64,000 nucleotides of DNA from Dokdonella sp. (GCF_036518555.1 NZ_DATDMY010000003.1:2626-66625); one strand, 5' to 3'; counted from the stretch's first letter, positions 41,911 to 63,329 are shown. Made by a program: numbers and translations. Notes: a model not told the origin generated them from the sequence alone.

Positions 41911-42360
41911 ATGAAGGCGACAGGTTCGATGCAGCTCGCATTCGCGCTCGCGTCCTGCGCGCCGATGACGGCGCATTGCGCCGATCTCGGTTGCCACCTC
42001 AGCTTCACGACCACGGCATGGTCCGCGCTGTACTCGAGCGCGCAGGGCGAAGGCATCGTGTTCTGCGACGACGGCTCGGCGATGCGCGTGGACATCGTCG
42101 AGGGCGGGCTCGGCCTCGCGGCCGGACGGTGGGCGATCACGGATGGGAGGGGTGCCTTCTCCGGCGTCCAAGGCATCGACGAAGTCGTCGGCGAATACGT
42201 CGCGGTGAGTGCGAACGTCGGCCTGATCAAGGCCGCCACCGTGCATGTTTTGGCCAAGGGCGGGATCTCGCTCGCGCTTGCCGGGCAGGGCGCGGGCTTC
42301 GACATCGGCCTGTGCATCGGCCGCTTCGAAGTCCGCAAGTCGGCCCAAGGGCGGAGGTAG
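41911..42360 (+). CDS. Small secreted conserved hypothetical protein (Gly-rich beta protein, two or more Cys)
   Basis: GGAG RBS; CHLSF...W...Y...G.G...C.DG pattern; C-terminal ISLALAG.GAGFDIG. Confidence 0.6.
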   Translation: MKATGSMQLAFALASCAPMTAHCADLGCHLSFTTTAWSALYSSAQGEGIVFCDDGSAMRVDIVEGGLGLAAGRWAITDGRGAFSGVQGIDEVVGEYVAVSANVGLIKAATVHVLAKGGISLALAGQGAGFDIGLCIGRFEVRKSAQGRR

Positions 42361-42423
42361 CACATGCCGCCCGATCTCACCGCGCCCGAGCACGAACGAG
42401 CGTGCGCCGCTGTCGCGGTTGCG

Positions 42424-42765
42424 TCAGGTGCAATCGCGCCCACCGCCGCAGTAGATGTCGTGCAGCACGCGCACGATGCGTTTCGCCGGGCCGGGCGCGA
42501 GAGCGTAGTAGATCGTCTGCGCATCGCGCCGCGTGACGACGAGTTCCTCCTCGCGCAGCACCGCGAGATGTTGCGACAGCGCGGGCTGGCTGAGGTCGAG
42601 GTTCGCATTGATCTGCGACACGGAACGTTCCCCGCCGGCGAGCAGGCAAAGGATCATCAGGCGGCTCTCGTTGCCGAGCGCCCTGAGCAGCCGGCTGGCG
42701 TCACCGGCGTGGGCGCGCATGCGTTCAGGGTCGAGCACGGATCTCGGCGTTCGTGGGCGGCTCAT
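42424..42765 (-). CDS. ArsR-family persulfide-sensing repressor (SqrR/BigR type)
   Basis: LRALGNESRLMILCLL, SQPALSQHLAVLR, RRDAQTIYY, IYC; both sensing-position Cys present. Confidence 0.85.
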   Translation of the reverse strand: MSRPRTPRSVLDPERMRAHAGDASRLLRALGNESRLMILCLLAGGERSVSQINANLDLSQPALSQHLAVLREEELVVTRRDAQTIYYALAPGPAKRIVRVLHDIYCGGGRDCT

Positions 42766-42843
42766 CGAAATCTCCTTGCACCAAAGCGTGGGTACCGATG
42801 CGGCAGGCCGGCGGCGTGCGTCCGCCGATGCGCACCCGCGCTA

Positions 42844-42885
42844 CAATATAAGTTGACGTGCATATAAAGAACACCTAATATATTG
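42844..42885 (+). promoter_or_regulatory. Sigma70-type promoter of sqr inside an AT-rich inverted repeat (candidate operator)
   Basis: TTGACG (42853-42858), N17, TAATAT (42876-42881); flanked by CAATATA (42844) and TATATTG (42879-42885). Confidence 0.65.
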
Positions 42886-42909
42886 CCACGAAAGCGGGTG
42901 AGGTGGAAC

Positions 42910-44196
42910 ATGGCCAGGATCATCGTCGTCGGCGCGGGTTTGGCGGGCATGAGCGCCGCCTACGAACTGCGCGAGGTGCTCGGGTCCTCGCACGAGGTCA
43001 CGCTCGTCGGGCAAGGAGACACCTTCGCGTTCACGCCGTCCAACCCGTGGCTGGCGATCGGCTGGCGCAGGCCGGAGGACATCACGCTCCCGGTCGCACC
43101 GCACGTCGCGCGGCGCGGCATCGCGTTCCGCGGCGACGGCGTCGCACGGATCCTCGCGCAGGAGCACGTCGTCGTGACCGGCGACGGGACGCGCCTTCCG
43201 TACGACTACCTCGTCCTGTGCACCGGGCCTCAGCTCGCGTTCGACGAGATACCGGGCCTCGGCCCCGACGGGCGGACGCAGTCGGTCTGCACGGCCGCGC
43301 ACGCGCAAGGGGCCTGGCAAGCCTATGAGGCCTTCCTCGCCGATCCCGGGCCGGTGGTCGTCGGCGCCGCGCAGGGCGCGAGCTGCTTCGGCCCCGCCTA
43401 CGAGTTCGCGATGATCCTCGATGCGGACCTGCGCAAGCGCCGCCTGCGCGACCGCGTCCCGATGACGTTCGTGACCTCCGAGCCCTACCTCGGCCATCTC
43501 GGCCTCGGCGGCGTCGGCGACTCCAAGTCGCTGATGGAATCGGAGTTCCGCAAGCGCCACATCAAATGGATCGAGAACGCGCGCATCACGGGCGCCCGCG
43601 AAGCAGGGCTCGACGTCGAGCAGCTCGACGCGCACGGGCGCGTCGCGGCGACGACCGTGCTGCCGTTCCGCTATGCGATGGTGCTGCCGTCGTTCCGCGG
43701 CGTACCCGCGGTCGCGGCCGTGGAATCGCTGTGCAACCCGCGCGGCTTCGTCATCGTCGATGCACACCAGCGCAGCCCGGCCTATCCGCGCATCTTCGCC
43801 GCGGGCGTCTGCGTCGCCATACCGCCCGTGGAGGCGACCGCGGTGCCGACCGGCGCGCCGAAGACGGGCTTCATGATCGAATCGATGGTCAGCACGATCG
43901 TGCGCAACATCGATGCCGAGCTCAAGGGCGAGGCGCCCGAATACGAGGGCACGTGGAACGCCGTCTGCCTCGCCGACATGGGCGACACCGGCGTCGCGTT
44001 CGTCGCGCTGCCGCAGATCCCGCCGCGCAACGTGACCTGGACGGCGAGCGGCAAGTGGGTGCACCTGGCCAAGGTCGGCTTCGAGAAGTACTTCCTGCAC
44101 AAGATGCGCAGCGGCGTCTCCGAGCCGATCTACGAGAAGTACATCCTCTCCGCGCTCGGCATCGAGCGCCTGAAGGAGCGCCGCGCTCACGAGTAG
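42910..44196 (+). CDS. sqr: Sulfide:quinone oxidoreductase, type I (SqrA-like)
   Basis: GAGLAG FAD motif, FTPSNPW, QSVCT, GASCFGPAYEF, PKTGFMIESM, WNAVCLADMG, KVGFEKYFL. Confidence 0.9.
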   Translation: MARIIVVGAGLAGMSAAYELREVLGSSHEVTLVGQGDTFAFTPSNPWLAIGWRRPEDITLPVAPHVARRGIAFRGDGVARILAQEHVVVTGDGTRLPYDYLVLCTGPQLAFDEIPGLGPDGRTQSVCTAAHAQGAWQAYEAFLADPGPVVVGAAQGASCFGPAYEFAMILDADLRKRRLRDRVPMTFVTSEPYLGHLGLGGVGDSKSLMESEFRKRHIKWIENARITGAREAGLDVEQLDAHGRVAATTVLPFRYAMVLPSFRGVPAVAAVESLCNPRGFVIVDAHQRSPAYPRIFAAGVCVAIPPVEATAVPTGAPKTGFMIESMVSTIVRNIDAELKGEAPEYEGTWNAVCLADMGDTGVAFVALPQIPPRNVTWTASGKWVHLAKVGFEKYFLHKMRSGVSEPIYEKYILSALGIERLKERRAHE

Positions 44197-44262
44197 GCGT
44201 CGAACGTCCCGCGCCGGCGGCGCGGGGCGCGGATTTTCCCCTCTTTCGAAGGAGTCTTCACC

Positions 44263-44469
44263 ATGAACCTCGACCGTGCGGTGATGGCATTCGCGGGCGT
44301 GATGGTCCTCGTCAGCGTGCTGCTTGCGTATTACGTCTCCCCCTGGTGGCTGCTGCTGACGGTGTTCGTCGGGCTCAACCTCATCCAGGCGAGCATCACG
44401 GGCTTCTGCCCGGCCGCGATCGTGTTCCGGAAATTCGGCGTGCGCGGAGGCGGTTGTGCGTTCAAGTAG
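44263..44469 (+). CDS. DUF2892 (YgaP-like) small membrane protein
   Basis: FVGLNLIQASITGFCPAA motif, two TMs. Confidence 0.85.
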   Translation: MNLDRAVMAFAGVMVLVSVLLAYYVSPWWLLLTVFVGLNLIQASITGFCPAAIVFRKFGVRGGGCAFK

Positions 44470-45547
44470 TCGATGGCTGCCGCTCGCGGCCGCGGCGGCA
44501 CTCGCCGCGTGCAGCGGCGAGCGGGCGACCAGTCAGCTGCCGCCGTTGCCCGATCTGCCGATCCTCGAAGTGACGCCTGCGGGCGCTTCGCGGGGGCAGG
44601 GCTGGGATGGCGTCGTCGAAGCGATGCGGCGCGCCGACCTCAGCGCGCAGACCGCCGGCACCGTCGACGCGGTCGAGGTCGACGTGAACGATCGCGTCGA
44701 CGCCGCAGCGGTGCTGGTGCGCATCAGCGCAGTCGAGCAGGATGCCGTCGCGAACACGGCGCGCGCGCAGCTGCGCGCGGCCGAAGCGTCGGCCGTCGTG
44801 GCCGAGCAGAACTTTCGCCGCTTCTCGACGCTGTCCGATGCCCGGTACGGGTCGCGCGCGCAACTCGACCAGGCCCGCGCCGAGCGCGACGCCGCGGTCG
44901 CCGCGCGCGACGCGGCACGCGCACGCCTGGCGCAGGCGGCGCAGCAGGCCGGGTACACCGTCGTGCGCGCGCCGTTCGCGGGCGTGGTCGCGCGCCGCGA
45001 CGTCGAGCCCGGTGAAACGGTGGCGCCCGGTCAGCCGCTGCTCTCGGTCTACGCACCGCACGATCTCCGCATCGAGGTGTCGGTGCCGCAGACGCGCGCG
45101 GAGGCGATCCGGCGCGATCCGCGCGCGCGCGTTCGATTGCCCGACGGGCGCGAACTGGCGCCGACGCAGGTCGTCGTGTTCCCGGCCGCCGACGACCTCA
45201 GCCATAGCGTGGTCGTGCGACTCGCGTTGCCCGCGACGGCGGCGCCGCCTGCACCCGGCACGACCGCCAAGGTCGTGTTCGATGCCGCGGCCCCGGAAGG
45301 TGAAGCGGAGGCGCAGCCGGTGAGCATTCCGCGTGCGTCCGTCGCCCAGCGCGGAGAGCTCAGCGCTGTCTACGTCAGGCAGGGCGATCGGATCCTGCTT
45401 CGCCAGGTGCGCCTCGGAGCGCACCACGGCGACGACGTCGACGTGATCAGCGGGTTGCGCGCGGGCGACGCGATCGTGCGCGATCCCGTCGCTGCCGTGC
45501 AGGCCCTCGCTGCCCAGCGACGCGCGGTGGGTGCGGCGCATGAGTGA
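44456..45547 (+). CDS. RND efflux periplasmic adaptor (lipoprotein)
   Basis: Lipobox LAAC; LSAQTAGTV..V.VDVNDRV; VVRAPFAGVV; VISGLRAGD. Confidence 0.9.
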   Translation: MRSSSRWLPLAAAAALAACSGERATSQLPPLPDLPILEVTPAGASRGQGWDGVVEAMRRADLSAQTAGTVDAVEVDVNDRVDAAAVLVRISAVEQDAVANTARAQLRAAEASAVVAEQNFRRFSTLSDARYGSRAQLDQARAERDAAVAARDAARARLAQAAQQAGYTVVRAPFAGVVARRDVEPGETVAPGQPLLSVYAPHDLRIEVSVPQTRAEAIRRDPRARVRLPDGRELAPTQVVVFPAADDLSHSVVVRLALPATAAPPAPGTTAKVVFDAAAPEGEAEAQPVSIPRASVAQRGELSAVYVRQGDRILLRQVRLGAHHGDDVDVISGLRAGDAIVRDPVAAVQALAAQRRAVGAAHE

Positions 45548-48500
45548 GGTCGTGCATACGCGCTTCGGCCTCGCGGGCCGGCTCGCCGCGGCATTCCAGT
45601 CCAATCCGCTCACGCCGATCCTCGCGATCACGGGGCTCCTGCTCGGCCTGCTCGCGGTCGCGATCACGCCGCGGGAGGAAGAGCCGCAGATCGACGTGAC
45701 GATGGCGAACGTGATCGTGCCGTTCGAGGGCGCGGCGTCGCGCGACGTCGAACAACTGGTGTCGACGCCGCTGGAGCAGAAGCTGTCGGAGATCGAGGGC
45801 GTCAAGCACGTCTACTCGATCAGCCGCCCGGGCGCGGCGGTGGTGACGGTCGAGTTCGAAGTCGGCGTGGATCGCCAGGCGGCGCTCGTGCGCCTGTACA
45901 ACCAGGTGTTCTCGAACCAGGACGGGTTGCCGCGCGATGCCGGCGTCGGCACGCCGCTGGTCAAGCCGAAAGGCATCGACGACGTGCCGATCATGGCGCT
46001 CACGCTGTGGAGCGACGATGCGTCGACGGACGCGGGCCGGCTCGCGGACGTCGCGCATACGCTCGAAGCGGAACTCAAGCGCGTCCCGGGCACGCGCGAC
46101 GTGTACACGATCGGCGCGCCGGACCGCACCGTGCTCGTGACCCTCGACGTCGCGAAGCTCGCCGCGTATCGCCTCGCGCCGGGCGACCTGGTGGCGGCTC
46201 TGCAAGCCGCGAATGTCGTGCACCAGCCCGGCGAACGCGTCGACGCGGCGGGCGCGGTGCCGGTGACGGCCGGCCGTTTCCTCGCCTCGTACGACGACGT
46301 CGCATCGCTCGTGATCGGTAGCGCGGGCGGCAAGCCGCTGCTGCTTTCGGACGTCGCGACCGTGGAAGCGAAGGGCGACCTGCCCACGCGTTACGCGTGG
46401 TACGGCGCGCCGCCCGGGCGAGCCGGTCCGGCGGCGGGCATCGCGCCGGCCGTGACCATCGCCGTGGCGAAGAAGCCCGGCAGCAACGCGTCCGACATCA
46501 CGACCGCGATCGCCGCGCGCATCGGTGAACTCCGCGGCGAGATGATCCCGGACGGCGTCCATGTCGCGGTGACGCGCGACTACGGGCGCACCGCCGCGGA
46601 CAAGGCGCGGAAGCTGATCCAGAAGCTGCTCTTCGCGACCGCGTCGGTGGTCGCGCTGATCCTGTTCTCCCTCGGCTGGCGCGAAGCGATCGTCGTCGGC
46701 AGCGCCGTGGTGCTGACGCTCGCAGTCACGTTGTTCGCCTCGCATGCGATGGGCTTCACGCTCAACCGCGTGTCGCTGTTCGCGCTGATCTTTTCGATCG
46801 GCATCCTCGTCGACGACGCCGTCGTCGTCGTCGAGAACATCCATCGGCATCTCGCCATGCCGGGTGACGACGGGCGACCTCGCCGGCTCCTCGACGTGAT
46901 TCCGCGGGCCGTCGACGAGGTCGGCGGACCGACCATCCTGGCGACGTTCACCGTGATCGCGGCGTTGATGCCGATGGCGTTCGTCTCCGGGCTGATGGGG
47001 CCGTACATGCGGCCGATCCCGGTCAATGCATCCGCGGGCATGCTGCTGTCGCTCGCGATCGCATTGACGGTCACGCCGTGGCTGTCGCTGAAGCTGCTGC
47101 GGCGCCACGGCGATGCCGACACGGAGTGGCCCGACGATGCGCCGCGGCGGGGGAGGCTGCATCGGGTGTTCTCGCGCGTGATGCTGCCGTTCCTCGCCGG
47201 AGAGCATGCCGGTCGCAAGCGCGTCGCGCTGCTCGGCTCGATGGTCGCTCTCGTGGTGCTGGCGGCATCGCTCGTCGCGGTCGAGTGGGTCGTGCTGAAG
47301 ATGCTTCCGTTCGACAACAAGTCGGAAGTGCAGGTCGTCGTCGACATGCCCGAGGGGAGCTCGCTCGAACGAACCGATGCGCTGCTGAAGGAACTCGCCG
47401 CCGAGGTCGACACGATCCCGGAAGTGCTCGACTACCAGGGCTACGCGGGCACCGCGGCGCCGATCAACTTCAACGGACTCGTGCGGCAGTATTACCTGCG
47501 CAGCGGCAGCAACGTCGGGGACCTGCAGGTCGACCTCGTCGACAAGCACCTTCGGTCGCGCCAGAGCCACGCGATCGCGCGCGCAATGCGTCCCGCGCTC
47601 GCCGCGATCGGCGAGCGCTACGGCGCGTCGGTGAAGGTGGTCGAGGTGCCGCCGGGCCCGCCGGTGCTCGCGCCGCTGGTCGCCGAAGTGTACGGGCCGG
47701 ACTACGCCGGCCAGCGGCGCATCGCGCGCGCGCTCGCGTCGGAACGGTTCGCACGCACCGAAGGCCTCGTCGACATCGACACGAGCGTCGAGAGCGACGC
47801 GCCGCGCGAGGTCTACGTGCTCGACCGCGAACGGGCCGCGCGCCTCGGCGTGACGCAAGCGGCCGCGTCGGACGCGCTCGCGCTCGCGGTCGCGGGCAAG
47901 GATGCGACGTTCATCCAGGACGGCCGGTCGAAGTACCCGCGCCCTGTCCGCCTGCGTCTGCCGGCCAGCGAACAATCCGCTTCATCGTCGCTGCTCGCGA
48001 CGCGCGTCCGCGGCGAGGACGGTCGGCTCGTGCCTCTGTCGGAACTCGTGACCGTGCATCGCGACGCGTGGGATGGCGCGATCCACCACAAGGACGGCCT
48101 TGCGGTCGCGTACGTCACCGGCGACGAGGCCGGCAGACTCGACAGCCCGCTGTACGGGATGTTCGCCGTGGTCGGCGATCTGCGCCGTGCGCCGGTCGAC
48201 GGCCAGCTGCTCGAGCAGACCTTCATCACCCAGCCCGACGACGCGAGCCGGTACGCGATCAAATGGGACGGCGAATGGCAGATCACGTACGAAACGTTCC
48301 GCGACATGGGCATCGCCTATGCCGCGGGCATGGTGCTCATCTACCTGCTCGTGGTCGCGCAGTTCCGCAGCTACGTCGTGCCGCTCGTGATCATGGCACC
48401 GATCCCGCTCACGGTCGTGGGCGTCCTGCCGGGGCACGCGTTGCTCGGTGCGCAGTTCACCGCGACGAGCATGATCGGCATGATCGCGCTCGCGGGCATC

Positions 48501-48803
48501 ATCGTGCGCAACTCGATCCTGCTGGTGGATTTCATCGACCACGAAGTCGGCCGCGGAGTGGCGCTGCAGGACGCGGTGATCGACGCCTGCGCGGTGCGCG
48601 CCAAGCCGATCGTGCTCACCGGCGTCGCGGCGATGCTGGGCGCGTTCTTCATCCTCGACGACCCGATATTCAACGGCCTCGCGATCTCGCTCGTGTTCGG
48701 CATTCTCGTCAGCACGATCCTGACGCTGGTCGTGATTCCGGTGCTGTACTACGCGATCAGGCGCCGCAGAGCGCACGGTGGCGCGCTGCAGGCGGGCGCA
48801 TAG
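45540..48803 (+). CDS. RND efflux permease (AcrB/AcrD/AcrF family)
   Basis: PREEEPQI, GILVDDAVVVVENI, GIIVRNSILLVDF, RAKPIVLT; 1087 aa. Confidence 0.9.
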   Translation: MSEVVHTRFGLAGRLAAAFQSNPLTPILAITGLLLGLLAVAITPREEEPQIDVTMANVIVPFEGAASRDVEQLVSTPLEQKLSEIEGVKHVYSISRPGAAVVTVEFEVGVDRQAALVRLYNQVFSNQDGLPRDAGVGTPLVKPKGIDDVPIMALTLWSDDASTDAGRLADVAHTLEAELKRVPGTRDVYTIGAPDRTVLVTLDVAKLAAYRLAPGDLVAALQAANVVHQPGERVDAAGAVPVTAGRFLASYDDVASLVIGSAGGKPLLLSDVATVEAKGDLPTRYAWYGAPPGRAGPAAGIAPAVTIAVAKKPGSNASDITTAIAARIGELRGEMIPDGVHVAVTRDYGRTAADKARKLIQKLLFATASVVALILFSLGWREAIVVGSAVVLTLAVTLFASHAMGFTLNRVSLFALIFSIGILVDDAVVVVENIHRHLAMPGDDGRPRRLLDVIPRAVDEVGGPTILATFTVIAALMPMAFVSGLMGPYMRPIPVNASAGMLLSLAIALTVTPWLSLKLLRRHGDADTEWPDDAPRRGRLHRVFSRVMLPFLAGEHAGRKRVALLGSMVALVVLAASLVAVEWVVLKMLPFDNKSEVQVVVDMPEGSSLERTDALLKELAAEVDTIPEVLDYQGYAGTAAPINFNGLVRQYYLRSGSNVGDLQVDLVDKHLRSRQSHAIARAMRPALAAIGERYGASVKVVEVPPGPPVLAPLVAEVYGPDYAGQRRIARALASERFARTEGLVDIDTSVESDAPREVYVLDRERAARLGVTQAAASDALALAVAGKDATFIQDGRSKYPRPVRLRLPASEQSASSSLLATRVRGEDGRLVPLSELVTVHRDAWDGAIHHKDGLAVAYVTGDEAGRLDSPLYGMFAVVGDLRRAPVDGQLLEQTFITQPDDASRYAIKWDGEWQITYETFRDMGIAYAAGMVLIYLLVVAQFRSYVVPLVIMAPIPLTVVGVLPGHALLGAQFTATSMIGMIALAGIIVRNSILLVDFIDHEVGRGVALQDAVIDACAVRAKPIVLTGVAAMLGAFFILDDPIFNGLAISLVFGILVSTILTLVVIPVLYYAIRRRRAHGGALQAGA

Positions 48804-48829
48804 GCGCACGCGCTTCGAGGAGCAGCGAC

Positions 48830-49975
48830 ATGACCAACCCCAGGACGAACGCGAGGATCACCGTGGTCGGCGCCGGCTTCGCCGGCCTCACCGCGCTGCG
48901 CACCGTGCGGGCGTCGGCGCCCGAGGCCGAGCTCACGCTGGTCGCGCCCGCGGCGGAGCTGCATTACCTGCCCGGGACGATCTGGCTCCCGTCGGGCAAG
49001 CGCACGCGCGAACAACTCGTCGTCCCGCTCGGCAATTTCCTGCGGCGCCAGCGCGTGCGATTCCACGGCGCGCGGGCGATCGGCCTTTCGCCGGACGCAC
49101 GCACGCTGCACACGAGTGCGGGCGACGTCGCGAACGACGGCCTCGTCATCGCGACCGGTGCGCGTTTCGGCCGCGGCGTAGCCGGTCTCGAGCATGTGAT
49201 CGTACCGTGCGAGGGGATCGCGGCCGCCGAGGCGATCCGTGAGCGGCTCGCGGCGATCGCGCAGGGAACGATCTGCTTCGGCTTCGGATCCAATCCCGCC
49301 GAACCGGTCGCGATGCGCGGGGGGCCGATCTTCGAGTTCGCGCTCGGCATCGACGCGCTCCTGCGCAGGCAACGCCGTCGCGATCGCTTCCGCCTCGTGT
49401 TCTTCAGCGCGTCGGAGCGGCCGGGGCAGCGCCTCGGGCAACATGCCGTGGACCGTCTCTTGCGCGAGATGCGCGCGCGCGGCATCGAGGCCATCCTCGG
49501 CGAGAAGCCGTTGCGCTTCGAGGCGGACGCGGTGCAGCTCGAACGCACGCGCATCGCCAGCGACATGACCCTCTTCATGCCGGGCCTGACCGGGGCGGCG
49601 TGGCTCGACGGGGCGTCGCTGCCGCGCTCCCCCGGCGGCTTCGTCGAGGGCGACGCCGGCTGCCGCGTCGCTGGCGTGTCGCGCACCTACGTCGCCGGCG
49701 ACGGCGGCAGCTATCCGGGACCGGAGTGGTTGCCGAAACAGGCGCACCAGGCCGACCTGCAGGCGACTGTCGCCGCGCGCAACCTCGTGCGCGAGCTCCG
49801 CGGCGATGCGCCCGACGAAACGTTCCGCAGCGAACTCGTCTGCATCATCGACGCGCTCGATCGCGGACTGCTCGTCACGCGCGGCGAGCGCGGCGGATTC
49901 TCGCTGCCGCCGCTGCGTGCGATGCACTGGGCCAAGGCCGCGTTCGAGCGCGCCTACCTGCGGCGGTACCGCTGA
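48830..49975 (+). CDS. Second SQR-family flavoprotein, probably type VI (SqrF-like)
   Basis: GAGFAG, YLPGTIW, PCEGI, AMRGGPIFEF (no Cys at the SCFGP position), KQAHQADLQA, LVCIID, KAAFERAYL. Confidence 0.75.
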   Translation: MTNPRTNARITVVGAGFAGLTALRTVRASAPEAELTLVAPAAELHYLPGTIWLPSGKRTREQLVVPLGNFLRRQRVRFHGARAIGLSPDARTLHTSAGDVANDGLVIATGARFGRGVAGLEHVIVPCEGIAAAEAIRERLAAIAQGTICFGFGSNPAEPVAMRGGPIFEFALGIDALLRRQRRRDRFRLVFFSASERPGQRLGQHAVDRLLREMRARGIEAILGEKPLRFEADAVQLERTRIASDMTLFMPGLTGAAWLDGASLPRSPGGFVEGDAGCRVAGVSRTYVAGDGGSYPGPEWLPKQAHQADLQATVAARNLVRELRGDAPDETFRSELVCIIDALDRGLLVTRGERGGFSLPPLRAMHWAKAAFERAYLRRYR

Positions 49976-49996
49976 TCGCGACGCTTCGTCGGCCCG

Positions 49997-50464
49997 CTAG
50001 GCGAGGACCGAGCGCGGTACGCTCGGCTCGAGCAGGTGCACGACGCGTTCGTGGATGCCGGTCGCCGTCAGTGCGGTGAGGTCGCGATGGATCTCCGCCA
50101 CGATGCTGTCGCTCAGCGGCTTGCCGCATTGACCGTGCAGGAGCCCGACGAACCTGGCCGGCGCGCACACGACGAGCCGTTCGAAACGCTGCTGGGTGCG
50201 GCCGTGCTCGAGCGCGGCGGCCAGCGTCTTCGCGAAGCGCGTGGCCTGCTTGGTCCGTAGCGTCGTGTGCGGCTCGATCGAATGGCGGGCGAAGCCCATG
50301 CTTTCGTTCACGGTCGGCGCATGGTCGGTGGTGAAGGCCTGCCCGCTCTCGCGCGCGTCGGGATTGGCGAAGCTCTCGATCTGCCGCAACGGCTCGTCGC
50401 GGCGAGTGCTCTCGAACACGCGCGCGCGTGCGCTGTCGGCTACGAGGATCCAGGTGACCGCCAT
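49997..50464 (-). CDS. Host-attachment-family (release-factor-like) protein
   Basis: TWILVADSARARVF, FAKTLA..LE, RLVVCAPARFVG.L, DLT. Confidence 0.8.
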   Translation of the reverse strand: MAVTWILVADSARARVFESTRRDEPLRQIESFANPDARESGQAFTTDHAPTVNESMGFARHSIEPHTTLRTKQATRFAKTLAAALEHGRTQQRFERLVVCAPARFVGLLHGQCGKPLSDSIVAEIHRDLTALTATGIHERVVHLLEPSVPRSVLA

Positions 50465-55127: not shown

Positions 55128-56366
55128 TCAGACGCCGAACGGATACGTGTCCGGCGGTTCGTGGCGCACCCAGTGCTCGCCGACGTCGATCGGTTCGACC
55201 GCGCTGGTTTCCTCGAGATGGAACACCGCATCGAACTGCGCGCCGAGCAGCGCGGAGAAATAGTGGCTCTCGAGTTCGGTTTCCGGCCGGTAGACCACGC
55301 CGATCGCGCGCTCGAGCGCGGGGCTGTCGATCGTGGCGACGACGTCGTCGCGCAAGGGCAGGAAGAAGCGATCGAGGTTCGTCGCGTAGAACGCATGCTC
55401 GTAGCTGTCGCGGCGAGCCGGACGCACCCAGCGCCGTTCGGCGGGCTGGTCCCAGTCGCGCGCGGCGGTGACATGGCCGGTGTAGGTCGTGAAGCCGACG
55501 AGCAGCGCGTTCTCGCGACCGACCTCCTCGCGCACGAGCTGGCCGACGTTCCACTCGCCGCGCTTGCTCATGGCCGTCGCGCGCGCGTCGCCCATATGGG
55601 AGTTGTGCGCCCACACGACGATGCGCCCATTGCGTCCGTTGTCGCGCACGTGGCGGCGCAGTGCGAGCAGGGTGTTCACCATGTGGGCGTCGCGCAGGTT
55701 CCAGGTGTTGGCCCGGCCGGCGAACATCGCGCGGTAGTAGTGTTCGGCATTCAGCACGACGTATGCGTTGCGTTCGGCGACGAACTGCTCGTCCGACTTC
55801 GCGCGGCCGTCGTCGGCGCGATACTCGGGCGCCTTGCGCACGAGGTCGACGAGGAGCCTCGCCGCGGCATCGCGGCACGGTGGGCGCAGCCCGGCCGCGG
55901 CCGCGTAGCCGTAATCCTGCGGATCGCGCACGTGGTCGAGGCAGGCGTAGAGGCGCTTCGCTGCTTCCACCTGGCCGGGGTCGACCTGTTCGAGGTAGGC
56001 GATCACGGCCTCGGCGGACCGATAGAGGCTGTAGAGGTCGAGTCCATGGATGCCGATCCTCGCGGCCTCCGGCAGTGCGGCGTTGTGGGCGTGCAGCCAT
56101 TGCATGAAATCGCGGACGACGCGGTTGCGCCACATCCAGGTCGGGAATCGCCGGAACTCGTCGAATGCCGCATCGAGCGTCACCGAGCCGCCGTTGCACG
56201 CGTAGCGGTTCAGGCGAAGCGTGTCGGGCCAGTCGCCCTCGATCGCGATGGCATCGAAGCCATGCTCCTCGATCAGGCGTCGCGTGATGCGCGCGCGCAT
56301 CTCGTAGAACTCGTGGATGCCGTGGCTCGCCTCGCCCAGCAACACGAACGCACGCTCGCCGACCAA
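55128..56366 (-). pseudogene. Erythromycin-esterase-family protein lacking its 5' end
   Basis: VLLGEASHG, EGDWPD, FPTWMWRN, WNLRDAHM, VWAHNSH, ERAIGVVY, TYPFGV; no start or RBS and no N-terminal leader before LVGERAFVLLGEASHG. Confidence 0.7.
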
Positions 56367-57962
56367 GACCGGTGGGCTCGCCGACGTCTGCGGCGCGCTG
56401 CCGAAGGCGCTCGTCGCGGCCGGTGCCGACGTGCGCGTGATCATGCCCGCATATCCGTCGACGCTCGATGGCGTGGCCGATCTTCGACTCGAGGTCGAGT
56501 TCGGCGAGGTGCTCGGCGCGCATCCGGTGCGCCTCCTGCGCGCGACCCTGCACGGCTCCGGGATCGTGGTCTGGCTGGTCGACTGCCCGACGCTGTACCA
56601 GCGACCCGGCACGCCCTACCTCGATGCGAACGGCGACGAGTGGCCGGACAACGCGATCCGCTACGGCGTGCTCTGCCACGTCGCGAGCCGCGTCGCGCTC
56701 GGCTGCACGGGCAGCGCGTGGACCCCGGACGTCGTGCATTGCCATGACTGGCACACGGGTCTCGTGCCGCTCCTGCTTCGGCGCGCGCACGCGCGTCCGC
56801 GCAGCGTGTTCACGGTGCACAATGCGGCATTCCAGGGCAATTTCCCGTTGGCGACGGCCGCGCTGCTCGAGTTGCCGCGCGACGGCGCCGCGTTCGAGGG
56901 TTTCGAGTTCTACGGCCAGCTCTCGTTCCTCAAGTGCGGCCTCGCCTTCGCCGACAAGGTGACCACGGTCAGCCCCACCTATGCCCGCGAGCTCGCCACG
57001 GCGGAATTCGGCTGCGGACTCGAAGGCCTGTTCGCGAGTCGTGGCGCCGATTTCGTCGGCATCATGAACGGCATCGACACCGAGGTCTGGAATCCGGCCA
57101 CCGATCCGTTCCTCGTCGACCGCTACTCCGCCGGCGACCCTTCCGGCAAGTTCGCGTGCAAGGCCGCGCTGCAGGACGAACTCGGCTTGCGCAGGGACGC
57201 CGAGGCCCCCGTCGCGATCTTCGCGAGTCGCGTGACGACGCAGAAGATGGCGGACGTGCTGCTCGGCAGGTTGCCCGTGCTCATGGAGCGCAACCCCCGC
57301 TTGCAGTTCGCAATGCTCGGCCACGGCGACCGCTCGCTCGAATCCGCCTATGCGGAGTTCGCGCGCGCGCACGCGGGGCGCGCCGCGGTGGACATCGGCT
57401 ACCGGGAATCGAGCGCGCACCGCCTGCATGCGGGGGCCGATTTCCTGCTGCACGGCTCGCGCTTCGAACCGTGCGGACTCGCCCAGCTCTATGCGATGCG
57501 CTACGGCGCGATCCGATCGTGCGTCGCGTCGGCGGGCTTGCCGACAGCGTCGTCGACGCCGGCAGCGGGAGCGGAGGCCGGGCGACCGGTTTCGTGTTCG
57601 AAGCGGCGACCGGCGACGCGCTCGAGGACGCCGTGCAGCGCTGCCTCGATCTGTACGCGACGCGTGGCGAAGCGTGGCGCGCGATGCGCCTGCGCGCGAT
57701 GGCTTCGGACTTCGGCTGGACGCGATCCGCGCAAGCGTACCTCGACCTGTACGCGCAGGCGCTGCAGGCCTGCGCGCCCGTGTCGGACGGCCGCGCGGCG
57801 GCGGAGCGGGGCACTCGCGCGCACCTTCGCGACGGCGCCCGGTCGCTCGTCCACGGCCGCAGCGCTTACGAATGGAGTCGGCGCCTTCCGTCCCCCATCC
57901 AACGCGCCAGCGCGCACGCCGGAGGTTCCCATGAAACTCACGCTCAGCGTGATCAAGGCTGA
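56365..57962 (+). pseudogene. glgA: Glycogen synthase, 5'-truncated and frameshifted
   Basis: Begins at KTGGLADV with no upstream Met; HCHDWH, TVHNAAFQG, TTVSPTYA, SRFEPCGLAQLYAMRYG; 1-nt loss near 57514, after which IVRRVGGLADSV continues in another frame. Confidence 0.85.
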
Positions 57963-59067
57963 CATCGGTTCGGTCGGCGGCCACATCCGCCCGTCCGCGG
58001 CACTGCTCGATCGCGTGCGCGAGCGCATCGAGCGCTGGCGTGGCCGACTCCTGATCGATGCGCGCGTGAGCGCGACCGGCGACGACATCGCGATCCTCAT
58101 GACGCACCGGCAGGGCATCGGCGCCGAAGCCATCCATCGGCTCGCCTGGGACGCGTTCGTCGCCGGCACCGAAACCGCGCGCAAGCAGGGGCTCTACGGC
58201 GCCGGCCAGGATCTGCTCAAGGACGCGTTCTCGGGCAACGTGCGCGGCATGGGACCGGCCGCCGCCGAGATGGAGATCGAGGAGCGGCCTGCGGAGCCGT
58301 TCCTGTTCTTCGCCGCCGACAAGACCGACCCCGGCGCGTTCAATCTGCCGCTCTACCTCGCGTTCGCCGACCCGATGAACACGCCGGGCTTGCTGCTTTC
58401 GCCGGAACTGGCGAAAGGCTTCCGGTTCGTGATCATGGACGTCGGACACAGCGAGGGCGACCGCGTGATCGAACTGGAGGCGCCGGCGGACCTTTACGCG
58501 ATCGCCGCGCTGCTGCGGGACACGGAGCGGTACGTGGTCGAATCGGTGTACTCGCGCGCGAGCGGCGAGCAGGCGGTCGCGGCGTGCACGACGCGACTGC
58601 ACAACATCGCGGGCAAGTACACCGGCAAGGACGATCCGGTGATGCTCGTGCGCGTGCAGAAGGATTTCCCGGCGACCGGCGAAGTCGTGGCTCCGTTCGC
58701 GATGGACCCGCTCGTCGCCGGCGGCATGCGCGGCTCGCACAACATGCCGCTGATGCCGGTGCCGCTCGAGAGCGGGATCAGCTACTTCGACGGCCCGCCG
58801 ATCATCACGTGTGCGGCGTACTGCGTGCACGACGGCTCGCTCACCGAAGCCGAGGACGTGTTCGCCCACCCGTTCTGGCAGCGGGTGCGCCACCATGCGG
58901 CCGACAAGGCGATCGAGCTGCGCCGCCAGGGATTTTTCGGCGCAGCGATGCTGCCGATGAACGAGCTCGAATACACCGGCATCACGAGCATGCTCGCCGC
59001 GCTGGAACCGCGCTTTCGCGTGCGCGCGACGGATTCGGCAGCCGTACCGAAGTCTGCCGCGCACTAG
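57931..59067 (+). CDS. fbp: Fructose-1,6-bisphosphate aldolase/phosphatase (class V, archaeal-type)
   Basis: SVIKADIGSVGGH, GDDIAILMTH, LYGAGQDLLKDAFSGNVRGMGP, DKTDPGAFN, KYTGKDDP, GGMRGSHNMPLMP; GGAGG RBS. Confidence 0.9.
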   Translation: MKLTLSVIKADIGSVGGHIRPSAALLDRVRERIERWRGRLLIDARVSATGDDIAILMTHRQGIGAEAIHRLAWDAFVAGTETARKQGLYGAGQDLLKDAFSGNVRGMGPAAAEMEIEERPAEPFLFFAADKTDPGAFNLPLYLAFADPMNTPGLLLSPELAKGFRFVIMDVGHSEGDRVIELEAPADLYAIAALLRDTERYVVESVYSRASGEQAVAACTTRLHNIAGKYTGKDDPVMLVRVQKDFPATGEVVAPFAMDPLVAGGMRGSHNMPLMPVPLESGISYFDGPPIITCAAYCVHDGSLTEAEDVFAHPFWQRVRHHAADKAIELRRQGFFGAAMLPMNELEYTGITSMLAALEPRFRVRATDSAAVPKSAAH

Positions 59068-62161: not shown

Positions 62162-63329
62162 GGTTCGAGCCCGGATACACGACGACGAGCTCGCCTTCCC
62201 GCAGGCCGCTTCCGACCAGCGCATCCTGCGACCCTCGCGCTTCCAACTCCACCGCGCGTTTGCGCGCCCGGCCGTCGGTCGCGACGAACGTCGTCCATTG
62301 CGATCCTTCCCGGAACAGGGCGCTGACGGGTACCGTCAGCACGCCCTTGCGCTCGTCGACGATGATGCGGGCATCCACCCGGTAGCCGTCGCCGACCGCG
62401 CGCCATCGCTCGCCGACGGACGTGGGATCGATCACGACGTTGACGCGCTGCTCCTCGACGCCCAGCGCCGAAATCTTCGTGAACGCCGACGGCTCGACGC
62501 GTCGGACCCGACCTTCCGCCGTGCCGTCCTCGCCCCAGTGCTCGAACTGCACGCGGTCGCCCGGCTGGATCGACACCGCGTCGGAACTCAGGACATCCAC
62601 GATCACCTCGAGATCGGCGGGATCGCCGAGCTCGAGCAACGGCGTACCCGTGAGTACGCCACGCTCGCTTTCCTGCAGCACGCGGAGCACGACGCCGGCA
62701 GCGGGCGCCTTGACCGGCCAGGGCTTCGCCGCCGCGCCCTTCGCGCCCGACATCGCCTGCGACAGCGCGGCGCGCGCCGCGTCGAGTGCATGGGACGCCG
62801 CATGACGCGCCTCGCGCGCCGCCTCGAGTTCCTTTTCGCGAGCGCTCAGCAGCAAGGTCGCGCTGTCGCGTTCGGCGGCGGTGACGAAGCCCTTCGCGGC
62901 GAGGTTGCCGATGCGGGTCGCGTCCGCGCGGGCCAGATCGACCGCCGCCTCCGCGCGTCCGATGTTCGCCGCGGCACTGAGGACCTCGGCGTCGGCCGCT
63001 TCCAGGCGTGCGGTCAGTTCCCGTTCGGTGCGCGCATCGAGCAAGGCCGGAATCGCGGGCACGATGTTCGCGAGTACGTCGCCGGGAGCGACGCGATCGC
63101 CTTCCCTGAGAACGATGCGTTCCAGCGTCCCGGCAAGCGGGGACGAAATCGTGAATCGGTTGCGCACGCGCGTCTTGCCGTCCTCTTCGACGGTGCGCTG
63201 GAACGTACCGCGCGCGACGCGCGCGGTGTCGACCCGGACGGCCGCGAGCATGAATGCCCAGGCCAGCAGGCCGGCCGCAGCGGCGACGAACGCGCCGGCG
63301 ATGGCGAGGCGCTTCAGGGACATGCTCAT
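62124..63329 (-). CDS. HlyD/MFP-family periplasmic adaptor of an ABC exporter
   Basis: VEEDGKTRVR, SSPLAG.LERI, VEPSAFTKISALGVEEQRV; ATGA overlap with the permease. Confidence 0.85.
   Translation of the reverse strand: MSMSLKRLAIAGAFVAAAAGLLAWAFMLAAVRVDTARVARGTFQRTVEEDGKTRVRNRFTISSPLAGTLERIVLREGDRVAPGDVLANIVPAIPALLDARTERELTARLEAADAEVLSAAANIGRAEAAVDLARADATRIGNLAAKGFVTAAERDSATLLLSAREKELEAAREARHAASHALDAARAALSQAMSGAKGAAAKPWPVKAPAAGVVLRVLQESERGVLTGTPLLELGDPADLEVIVDVLSSDAVSIQPGDRVQFEHWGEDGTAEGRVRRVEPSAFTKISALGVEEQRVNVVIDPTSVGERWRAVGDGYRVDARIIVDERKGVLTVPVSALFREGSQWTTFVATDGRARKRAVELEARGSQDALVGSGLREGELVVVYPGSNLSEGARVEANPR

Follow-up and report, generated by a model that had tools for sequence, protein, structure and literature searches.

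What is an efflux pump doing in an operon for the oxidation of sulfide? This question is raised by a stretch of 64,000 nucleotides from Dokdonella sp. (GCF_036518555.1 NZ_DATDMY010000003.1:2626-66625), here called the window, which is part of contig C3 in the 98% complete, 4.04-Mb assembly of a Dokdonella-like soil bacterium. The names of the closest protein relatives agree with a place in Dokdonella/Xanthomonadales. Between positions 42,424 and 49,975 the window (G+C content about 70%) encodes a predicted persulfide-sensing repressor and, divergently, two sulfide:quinone oxidoreductases (SQRs), which enclose a small DUF2892 membrane protein, a periplasmic adaptor of the membrane fusion protein (MFP) type and an RND permease. 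From the comparisons presented here, the pump formed by the latter two proteins probably acts on a product or a consequence of SQR activity.

To our knowledge, no route has been established by which zero-valent sulfur departs from the inner membrane of Gram-negative bacteria and passes through the outer one, nor is it known why heterotrophs which detoxify sulfide need more than SQR, persulfide dioxygenase (PDO) and rhodanese. The pump family described here is nearly universal in proteobacteria with a type I SQR, appears to be under the control of persulfide sensors and is far more conserved than drug pumps, which makes it a concrete and cheaply testable candidate. Export of sulfane sulfur, if true, would be the missing step which places sulfur outside Gram-negative sulfide oxidisers, and would have consequences for models of sulfide detoxification, for the deposition of sulfur outside the cell and for the connection of H2S/persulfide signalling with efflux-mediated tolerance. 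The window adds a presumed low-range and a presumed high-range SQR in one operon, a genome without TauE, and a sequence link from the pump family to the sole published expression data.

The sqrA-sqrF operon and its repressor

The following features were located:

42424..42765, minus strand: predicted two-Cys ArsR repressor of the SqrR/BigR type, 113 aa (PF01022, alignment with 6o8l)
42853..42881, plus strand: sigma-70-like promoter TTGACG-N17-TAATAT with an overlapping AT-rich operator-like element, ATATAAAGAACACCTAATAT (42862-42881) (promoter scan)
42910..44196, plus strand: sqrA, type I SQR, 428 aa (match to 3sz0/3t2z, three Cys)
44263..44469, plus strand: DUF2892/YgaP-like two-helix membrane protein, 68 aa, with Cys49 in GFCP (PF11127)
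44456..45547, plus strand: RND periplasmic adaptor (MFP), a predicted lipoprotein, 363 aa (TIGR01730, lipobox)
45540..48803, plus strand: RND permease, 1087 aa from ATG 45540 or 1090 aa from GTG 45531 (PF00873)
48830..49975, plus strand: sqrF, predicted type VI SQR, 381 aa (residue pattern, Chromatiaceae orthologue)

All six genes were found by open-frame and profile searches, with G+C contents at third codon positions of 0.83–0.93; the gene content and the identities given in an earlier note on this DNA were borne out by profile searches and alignments. The genes on the plus strand succeed each other with gaps or overlaps of 66, -14, -8/-17 and 26 nt, the adaptor gene overlapping the RND gene, and the gene downstream of sqrF lies on the opposite strand. 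A scan of positions 42300-50200 (7.9 kb) revealed a single strong sigma-70-like promoter, ahead of sqrA, and no convincing terminator inside the operon region. Because of the short gaps and overlaps, the one promoter and the lack of an internal terminator, the five genes sqrA-DUF2892-MFP-RND-sqrF are read from the sequence as one operon, divergent from the gene of its own repressor.

The repressor contains an ArsR/SmtB winged-helix domain (PF01022, 57.8 bits, 9.6e-16; NF033788, 87.8 bits; both above cut-off), and its best PDB match is SqrR of R. capsulatus (6o8l, E 2e-23). In the phmmer alignment with 6o8l, C40 (MILC40LL) and C106 (IYC106GG) align with the sensing residues Cys41 and Cys107 of SqrR. 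The divergent two-Cys ArsR protein of the earlier note could thus be recognized, and it is predicted to be a persulfide sensor of the SqrR type. The protein was classed as SqrR/BigR-like and not as BigR, since its score with the BigR equivalog (NCBIfam NF040642) was 94.5 bits, under the cut-off of 155 bits. It resembles SqrR of R. capsulatus and BigR of Xylella and Acinetobacter in being a two-Cys winged-helix repressor encoded divergently from its presumed targets, with sqr among these; it differs from their regulons in that no TauE or Blh gene is present here.

The intergenic regions of about 20 relatives contain a -35 element, TTGAC, and then an AT-rich repeat, TAAT(A/T)TAAG-N6-CTAAT(A/T)T, which in one of the loci (L021) is a perfect inverted repeat of 10 nt; promoter and repeat are kept whichever gene comes first, sqr, DUF2892 or pdo. 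The right half of the repeat overlaps the -10 element in the window and the left half-site is degenerate, for which reason the element is called operator-like only. The published SqrR box, ATTC-N8-GAAT, is absent from the intergenic region, and the conserved AT-rich repeat described above differs from it. When loosely defined, this AT-rich motif occurs in the 4.04-Mb genome at the operon only, and the regulon of the repressor may therefore consist of the sqrA-sqrF operon alone. RND pumps were included among the probable targets or neighbours of two-Cys ArsR sensors in a survey from the Dahl laboratory (Li et al. 2025, PMC12423496). Taken as a prediction, control of the operon by the SqrR-type repressor, in answer to sulfide, is considered very probable.

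SqrA, which starts probably at ATG 42910 rather than at TTG 42883 and ends at 44196, matches the SQR of Acidithiobacillus ferrooxidans (3sz0/3t2z) over its full length (E 3.7e-160, about 65% identity) and the A. aeolicus enzyme with E 3e-105. Its motifs SVCT, SCFGP and AVCLADMG align with Cys128, Cys160 and Cys356 of the A. ferrooxidans enzyme; all three type I Cys residues are therefore present, as the earlier note had held, and the catalytic Cys set and the quinone-site residues of the type I enzyme (3T2Z) are kept.

The second SQR homologue aligns with type I SQR structures with E 2e-17 only, an Arg being aligned at the position of Cys160 while the equivalent of Cys356 is kept. In the SqrF of Thiocapsa roseopersicina (TrSqrF), Cys121 is the FAD-linking residue, the catalytic Cys332 is located between Val331 and Ile333, and Phe366 and Trp369 are in the quinone site (PMC9666304). 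Invariant residues of the family to which the window protein belongs are C127, C278, C338, V337, I339 and F372, of which C127, V337-C338-I339 and F372 have a constant offset of +6 from the published residues; the position of Trp369 is occupied by Ala375, beside the invariant Tyr376. C278 is matched by Cys272 of TrSqrF, a residue reported by Duzs et al. 2021, and a Cys is present at 272 also in the orthologue from Thiohalocapsa. The latter has Cys at 121, 272 and 332 only, plus I333, F366 and W369. Chromatiaceae have been reported to possess no SQRs other than a type IV and a type VI enzyme (PMC3368242). The two Chromatiaceae genomes searched, of Allochromatium palmeri and Thiohalocapsa, contained one strong match each (53–54% identity, E 1e-131), with the next matches at E 1e-10 or higher.

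Because of the residues at the +6 offset and the single strong matches in Chromatiaceae, the second SQR homologue is assigned to type VI, SqrF, a label which is based on residues and orthology. The lack of a Cys160-type cysteine is then a trait of this type, and the SqrF-like character suggested in the earlier note is thereby confirmed. The catalytic Cys set and quinone-site residues known from SqrF of T. roseopersicina and Chlorobaculum tepidum are likewise kept. A flavoprotein other than SQR, similar to NDH-2 or to CoA-disulfide reductase, was ruled out by the SqrF residue pattern and the 53–54% identity to the Chromatiaceae proteins. Compared with known type I and type VI enzymes, the unusual circumstance is that both types are encoded in one operon, flanking an efflux pump, in a heterotrophic member of the Xanthomonadales. 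A division of labour between low and high sulfide among several SQRs of one organism is found in the SqrF literature (PMC9666304, PMC3368242), with which the proposal of such roles for the two enzymes agrees.

Linkage of the pump family to sulfur genes

The RND permease is HAE-1-like and shows the ACR_tran architecture (PF00873, 496 bits, residues 28-1076). It reaches the cut-off of none of the named NCBIfam RND models, the best score being 451 bits against a cut-off of 1250 bits, and it is not a member of the named subfamilies AcrB, Mex, Mdt, Oqx or CusA/CzcA (for the last, 251 versus 701 bits). Solved pumps, i.e., OqxB-like, MexK and AcrB entries, are about 25% identical. The family to which it belongs was found in more than 599 species-level genomes among the matches listed, is 55–87% identical across Gamma-, Beta- and some Alphaproteobacteria, and has 278 of 1090 positions which are at least 97% invariant. 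Its members cluster tightly in a tree, where a long stem separates them from the other RND pumps of the genome.

In a sample of 400 genomes of the phylum, the wider RND family (E 1e-150 or lower, about 39% identity or more) was present in 174, and type I SQR in 106. The pump was encoded in 88 of the 106 genomes with type I SQR and in 86 of the 294 without (odds ratio 11.8, Fisher p 3e-22, with no correction for phylogeny). When one over-sampled family was omitted, 42 of 43 SQR genomes had the pump; counted by families, it was present in 25 of the 26 which have SQR. At least 40 of the 106 type I SQR genomes have the RND gene within 10 kb of sqr.

The neighbourhoods point in the same direction. 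Among 82 loci, DUF2892 adjoins the pump genes in 47; members of the Xanthomonadales clade have it upstream of the adaptor gene, those of the Beta clade downstream of the pump gene. About 37 loci have an SqrR-like ArsR gene as an adjacent gene and about 22 a type I sqr, and a PDO gene is nearby in about 10. Genes for PDO, rhodanese, thioredoxin, OsmC, CMD and DUF442 proteins recur as neighbours. Marilutibacter maris has PDO-ArsR-rhodanese divergent from SQR-DUF2892-MFP-RND-OsmC-Trx-DUF442. The core is the same in Thermomonas brevis, where rhodanese and OsmC genes are missing from the cluster, while a CMD-family gene and, at its end, an SqrF gene are added. Twenty further regions were taken from other families with distant subfamilies of the pump (39–46% identity); 16 of these had been picked for an sqr near RND, and all 16 possess a DUF2892 gene, usually together with ArsR and rhodanese genes. 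This RND clade is thus strongly enriched near sulfur genes, as the proposal in the earlier note required, with sqr, DUF2892, SqrR-type ArsR and rhodanese genes as neighbours.

These data also bear on an alternative, a general stress or multidrug pump which is merely co-regulated, or is carried along beside the sulfide genes of a stress island, without any chemical relation to SQR. The window is indeed such an island, with genes for Usp, Hsp20, an FtsH paralogue, a P-type ATPase and BON-domain proteins; other RND pumps are induced by sulfide in Azospira as well (PMC5358917), and one clade of the family has no sulfur genes as neighbours. So extreme a conservation would, however, be unusual in a multidrug pump, many families show the link to sqr, DUF2892 and ArsR genes in differing gene orders, and the genome-level odds ratio is that given above, so that this explanation would appear very unlikely.

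Published expression data exist for one relative. In Azospira suillum PS an operon, Dsui_3440-3443, annotated as hypothetical protein, RND, SQR and MFP, was among the transcripts most induced by H2S (Mehta-Kolte et al. 2017, mBio, PMC5358917), with a rise from log2 values of about 1–4 to about 9–11 (PMC5358917). The locus was identified with a deletion primer from that paper, which had one exact match in 401 Rhodocyclaceae genomes; both deletion primers flank a minus-strand cluster MFP-SQR-RND-DUF2892. From the reading of this cluster by sequence, the "hypothetical protein" is DUF2892. Identities with the window proteins are 35% for MFP, 60% for type I SQR, 57.5% for RND (over 1092 residues) and 41% for DUF2892. 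The four core genes are therefore shared, in a different order and, in Azospira, without SqrF. Since the Azospira operon is orthologous by sequence, the published induction by sulfide, observed in Azospira, applies to the pump family, and the operon of the window would be expected to respond likewise. The module was thus already described and found to be sulfide-induced in 2017, with the pump uncharacterised; the added SqrF is new here. A second, unlinked DUF2892 gene, Dsui_0042, was the most sulfide-induced gene in the differential-expression table of that paper (PMC5358917).

No SqrR-like ArsR gene was detected in the 20 kb around the operon in the Azospira-type genome (G437), and a different regulator may control the module there. 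The upstream deletion primer and the adaptor gene are about 790 nt apart in this genome (L110:16022-16808).

The authors of the Azospira study considered the induction of the pump as a response to metal-sulfide stress (PMC5358917). The pump would then remove chalcophilic metals, or metal-sulfide complexes, which are toxic in the presence of sulfide. Besides this interpretation by the authors themselves (PMC5358917), many invariant Met and His residues in or near transmembrane (TM) helices (M489, M493, M591, M955, H969, M981 and M984) could be taken in its favour. On the other hand, TM4 has a DD pair of the HAE type, the score with CusA/CzcA (251 bits against the cut-off of 701 bits) is below those with multidrug-type models, the regulators belong with SqrR among the persulfide sensors and not with the metal sensors, and the statistical link is to SQR. 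A role in metal removal is accordingly rated as quite improbable.

Candidate substrates of the pump

The adaptor (TIGR01730, 171.9 bits, cut-off 94.9) has a lipobox, LAAC, at residues 16-19, which contains the sole Cys of the protein. An alignment of the permease with E. coli AcrB showed that D428/D429, the Asp pair of TM4, R1023, the TM11 Arg of the proton relay, and T1030, all of them invariant, correspond to D407/D408, R971 and T978. The TM10 Lys of the proton relay, K940 of AcrB, is replaced by Arg993 (codon at window positions 48507-48509, numbered from GTG 45531) in 81 of 83 family members, whereas the paralogues have K, K, E and K. Positions of the Phe-rich pocket are occupied by an invariant, partly charged set, P153, R349, Y638, F647, D664, Q666 and K702, according to a mapping of AcrB residues which rests on an alignment of 25% identity. 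Since this set is invariant and partly charged, the permease seems to serve a single, defined substrate.

The genome contains at least six TolC-like genes, on contigs other than that of the window, as a search suggested by the earlier note revealed. In at least six Beta-clade loci the pump gene is succeeded by an outer-membrane factor (OMF) gene, and 6 of the 20 further regions also contain one; because of the OMF genes in Beta-clade operons the system is considered to be tripartite. The arrangement resembles AcrAB-TolC and AcrZ of E. coli, with a lipoprotein adaptor, a 12-TM RND protein with equivalents of D407/D408, R971 and T978, an OMF which is encoded elsewhere, and a gene for a small membrane protein beside the pump. 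It differs from AcrB in the identity of about 25%, the exchange of K940 for Arg and the replacement of the Phe-rich multidrug pocket by the invariant, partly charged set; and DUF2892, a two-helix protein, is unrelated to AcrZ and likened to it by gene position.

The DUF2892 protein (PF11127, 46.1 bits, 5.4e-12; cut-off 25.3 bits) is a two-helix hairpin with a conserved GxCP motif, and aligns to the TM domain of YgaP (2mpn). Its GFCP Cys, to which the earlier note had drawn attention, is kept in at least 90% of 47 pump-linked homologues. From the positive-inside rule and a basic C-terminal tail, Cys49 would be expected at the cytoplasmic face. In E. coli, YgaV-YgaP offers a parallel: DUF2892 corresponds to a stand-alone TM domain of YgaP (2MPN), and is paired with a two-Cys ArsR sensor. 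In contrast to YgaP, no rhodanese domain is fused to it here, and the invariant Cys aligns to a Ser of the solved YgaP construct. An obligatory, always-adjacent subunit would be encoded beside the pump in every locus and not, as here, in 47 of 82; yet the one clade without adjacency has 1–5 copies elsewhere (10 of 10 genomes checked). In many genomes DUF2892 adjoins sqr and not the pump. DUF2892 is proposed to be a small Cys-bearing partner of SQR, of the pump, or of both, and could be a membrane carrier of persulfide or an accessory subunit similar to AcrZ. A hand-off of sulfur from its Cys to the pump has adjacency as its sole basis. A Cys-to-Cys relay through the pump was ruled out, since neither pump protein offers a conserved receiving Cys: the RND protein has no conserved Cys, and the adaptor that of the lipobox only.

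The earlier note had supposed that efflux takes the place of the PDO and rhodanese route, since no gene for PDO, rhodanese, TauE or an OMF occurs in the window. None of these is present on the contig of the window, either. A type II PDO is encoded on another contig, C213 (E 1e-90 to 9g8t, 2e-73 to PDO of P. putida, 4ysk), where the gene is unlinked and without the operator motif; six rhodanese loci are found on other contigs, and a Trx2-type thioredoxin and a DUF442 protein are also encoded elsewhere in the genome. The argument from a missing PDO to an alternative route is therefore ruled out. PDO genes are situated beside the repressor gene in Marilutibacter and Thermomonas, accompanied by rhodanese in Marilutibacter. 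Because the genome has PDO and rhodaneses, and because sister genera co-locate these with the pump, the pump is a supplement to the PDO/rhodanese route and not its replacement.

The neighbours of the PDO gene (C213:23802-27535), which is the sole type II PDO gene of the genome, are an S1/P1-nuclease-like gene, with an OmpW-like gene beyond it, and on the other side a GAPDH gene. In M. maris, genes of these three kinds are found on the flanks of the full PDO-ArsR-SQR-pump cluster; the gene order differs between C213 and M. maris, and both flanking genes on C213 were named by eye and not by Pfam. Because of this shared surrounding, a PDO-SQR-pump cluster may have split here, the SQR-pump part having moved into the stress island.

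With PDO and rhodanese present, the pump could export sulfite or thiosulfate formed by these enzymes, as TauE-type exporters do in BigR and CstR operons. A search of the whole genome, which is 98% complete, for the TauE/SafE family (PF01925) found no gene, in contrast to 13 of 14 control genomes; furthermore, PDO and rhodanese genes have a divergent promoter region in common with the pump operon in sister genera, and the invariant pocket positions are partly basic. Yet the pump has sqr and DUF2892 as neighbours much more often than pdo, which is nearby in about 10 of the 82 loci, and the PDO gene is here unlinked and lacks the operator motif. A tripartite RND system, moreover, loads in the periplasm, porins let small anions pass the outer membrane, and the step at the cytoplasmic membrane, which TauE carries out, would not be solved. 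Export of sulfite or thiosulfate is thus judged unlikely.

The most economical choice of a substrate would be zero-valent sulfur, since this could explain the occurrence of the pump in nearly all type I SQR genomes, its control by a persulfide sensor and the need for an outer-membrane channel; it is put forward tentatively. Several points weigh against this substrate or against the explanation as a whole. The charged pocket (R349, D664, K702 and E50, from the 25%-identity alignment) suits an anion better than hydrophobic S8, and there is no conserved Cys in the RND protein and none but the lipobox Cys in the adaptor. The predicted location of the DUF2892 Cys is at the cytoplasmic side, while RND pumps usually load from the periplasm or the outer leaflet. 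The co-occurrence statistics are uncorrected for phylogeny, and 86 sampled genomes have the pump family without type I SQR. A clade rich in Chromatiales and Thiotrichales consists of bare MFP-RND pairs with unrelated neighbours; no DUF2892, ArsR or sqr gene is adjacent in these loci (L020-L065; e.g., L025 Thiohalophilus, L052 Allochromatium, L065 Thioalkalivibrio), and the clade is rich in classical sulfur oxidisers. We know of no transport assay for any member of the RND family. Finally, deletion of the whole operon in Azospira left the rate of perchlorate-dependent sulfide oxidation unchanged; there, perchlorate reductase carries out the oxidation, and the result concerns its rate (PMC5358917).

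With zero-valent sulfur as the favoured substrate, the following sequence of events could be envisaged. Upon entry of sulfide, cytoplasmic sulfane sulfur would rise, the two Cys residues of the repressor would be bridged, and the AT-rich operator at the -10 element would be vacated, allowing transcription of sqrA-DUF2892-MFP-RND-sqrF as a single unit. SqrA and SqrF, presumably membrane-bound flavoproteins, would form zero-valent sulfur from sulfide, with quinone as the electron acceptor, the type I enzyme acting at low and the type VI enzyme at high sulfide, if the roles known from the literature hold. Adaptor, RND permease and a TolC-like channel encoded elsewhere would clear the SQR product from the inner membrane or the periplasm to the outside; polysulfide, S8 or a low-molecular-weight persulfide would be the likeliest substrate. 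Remaining sulfane sulfur would be processed by the unlinked PDO and the rhodaneses. The whole chain, short of the exact substrate, is proposed with modest confidence. A more specific version, in which MFP-RND, DUF2892 and a TolC-like channel form a dedicated envelope exporter of polysulfide or S8 made by SQR, with the DUF2892 Cys as an acceptor or gate at the membrane face which couples SQR turnover to pumping, is conceivable but doubtful.

Genes around the operon

The operon is surrounded by a stress/dormancy-type island (34400-56600), which encodes two Usp proteins, Hsp20, a P-type cation ATPase, the FtsH paralogue, a triple-BON protein, a baeRF/host-attachment protein, a YkuD transpeptidase, a zinc alcohol dehydrogenase and an erythromycin-esterase-like protein. 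Glycogen synthase and a class V fructose-bisphosphate aldolase/phosphatase are encoded just outside the island (56317-59067).

A frame of 149 aa (41911-42360, plus strand) with a signal-peptide-like start lies tail-to-tail with the repressor gene and has no Pfam or NCBIfam match. It has a paralogue at C213:30563-31030 (42% identical, E 1e-29), with the PDO gene about 4 kb away; both copies are thus close to sulfur genes. A second MFP-type adaptor (62172-63182, minus strand), which adjoins a partial transporter gene, is unrelated, with 28% identity to the adaptor of the operon.

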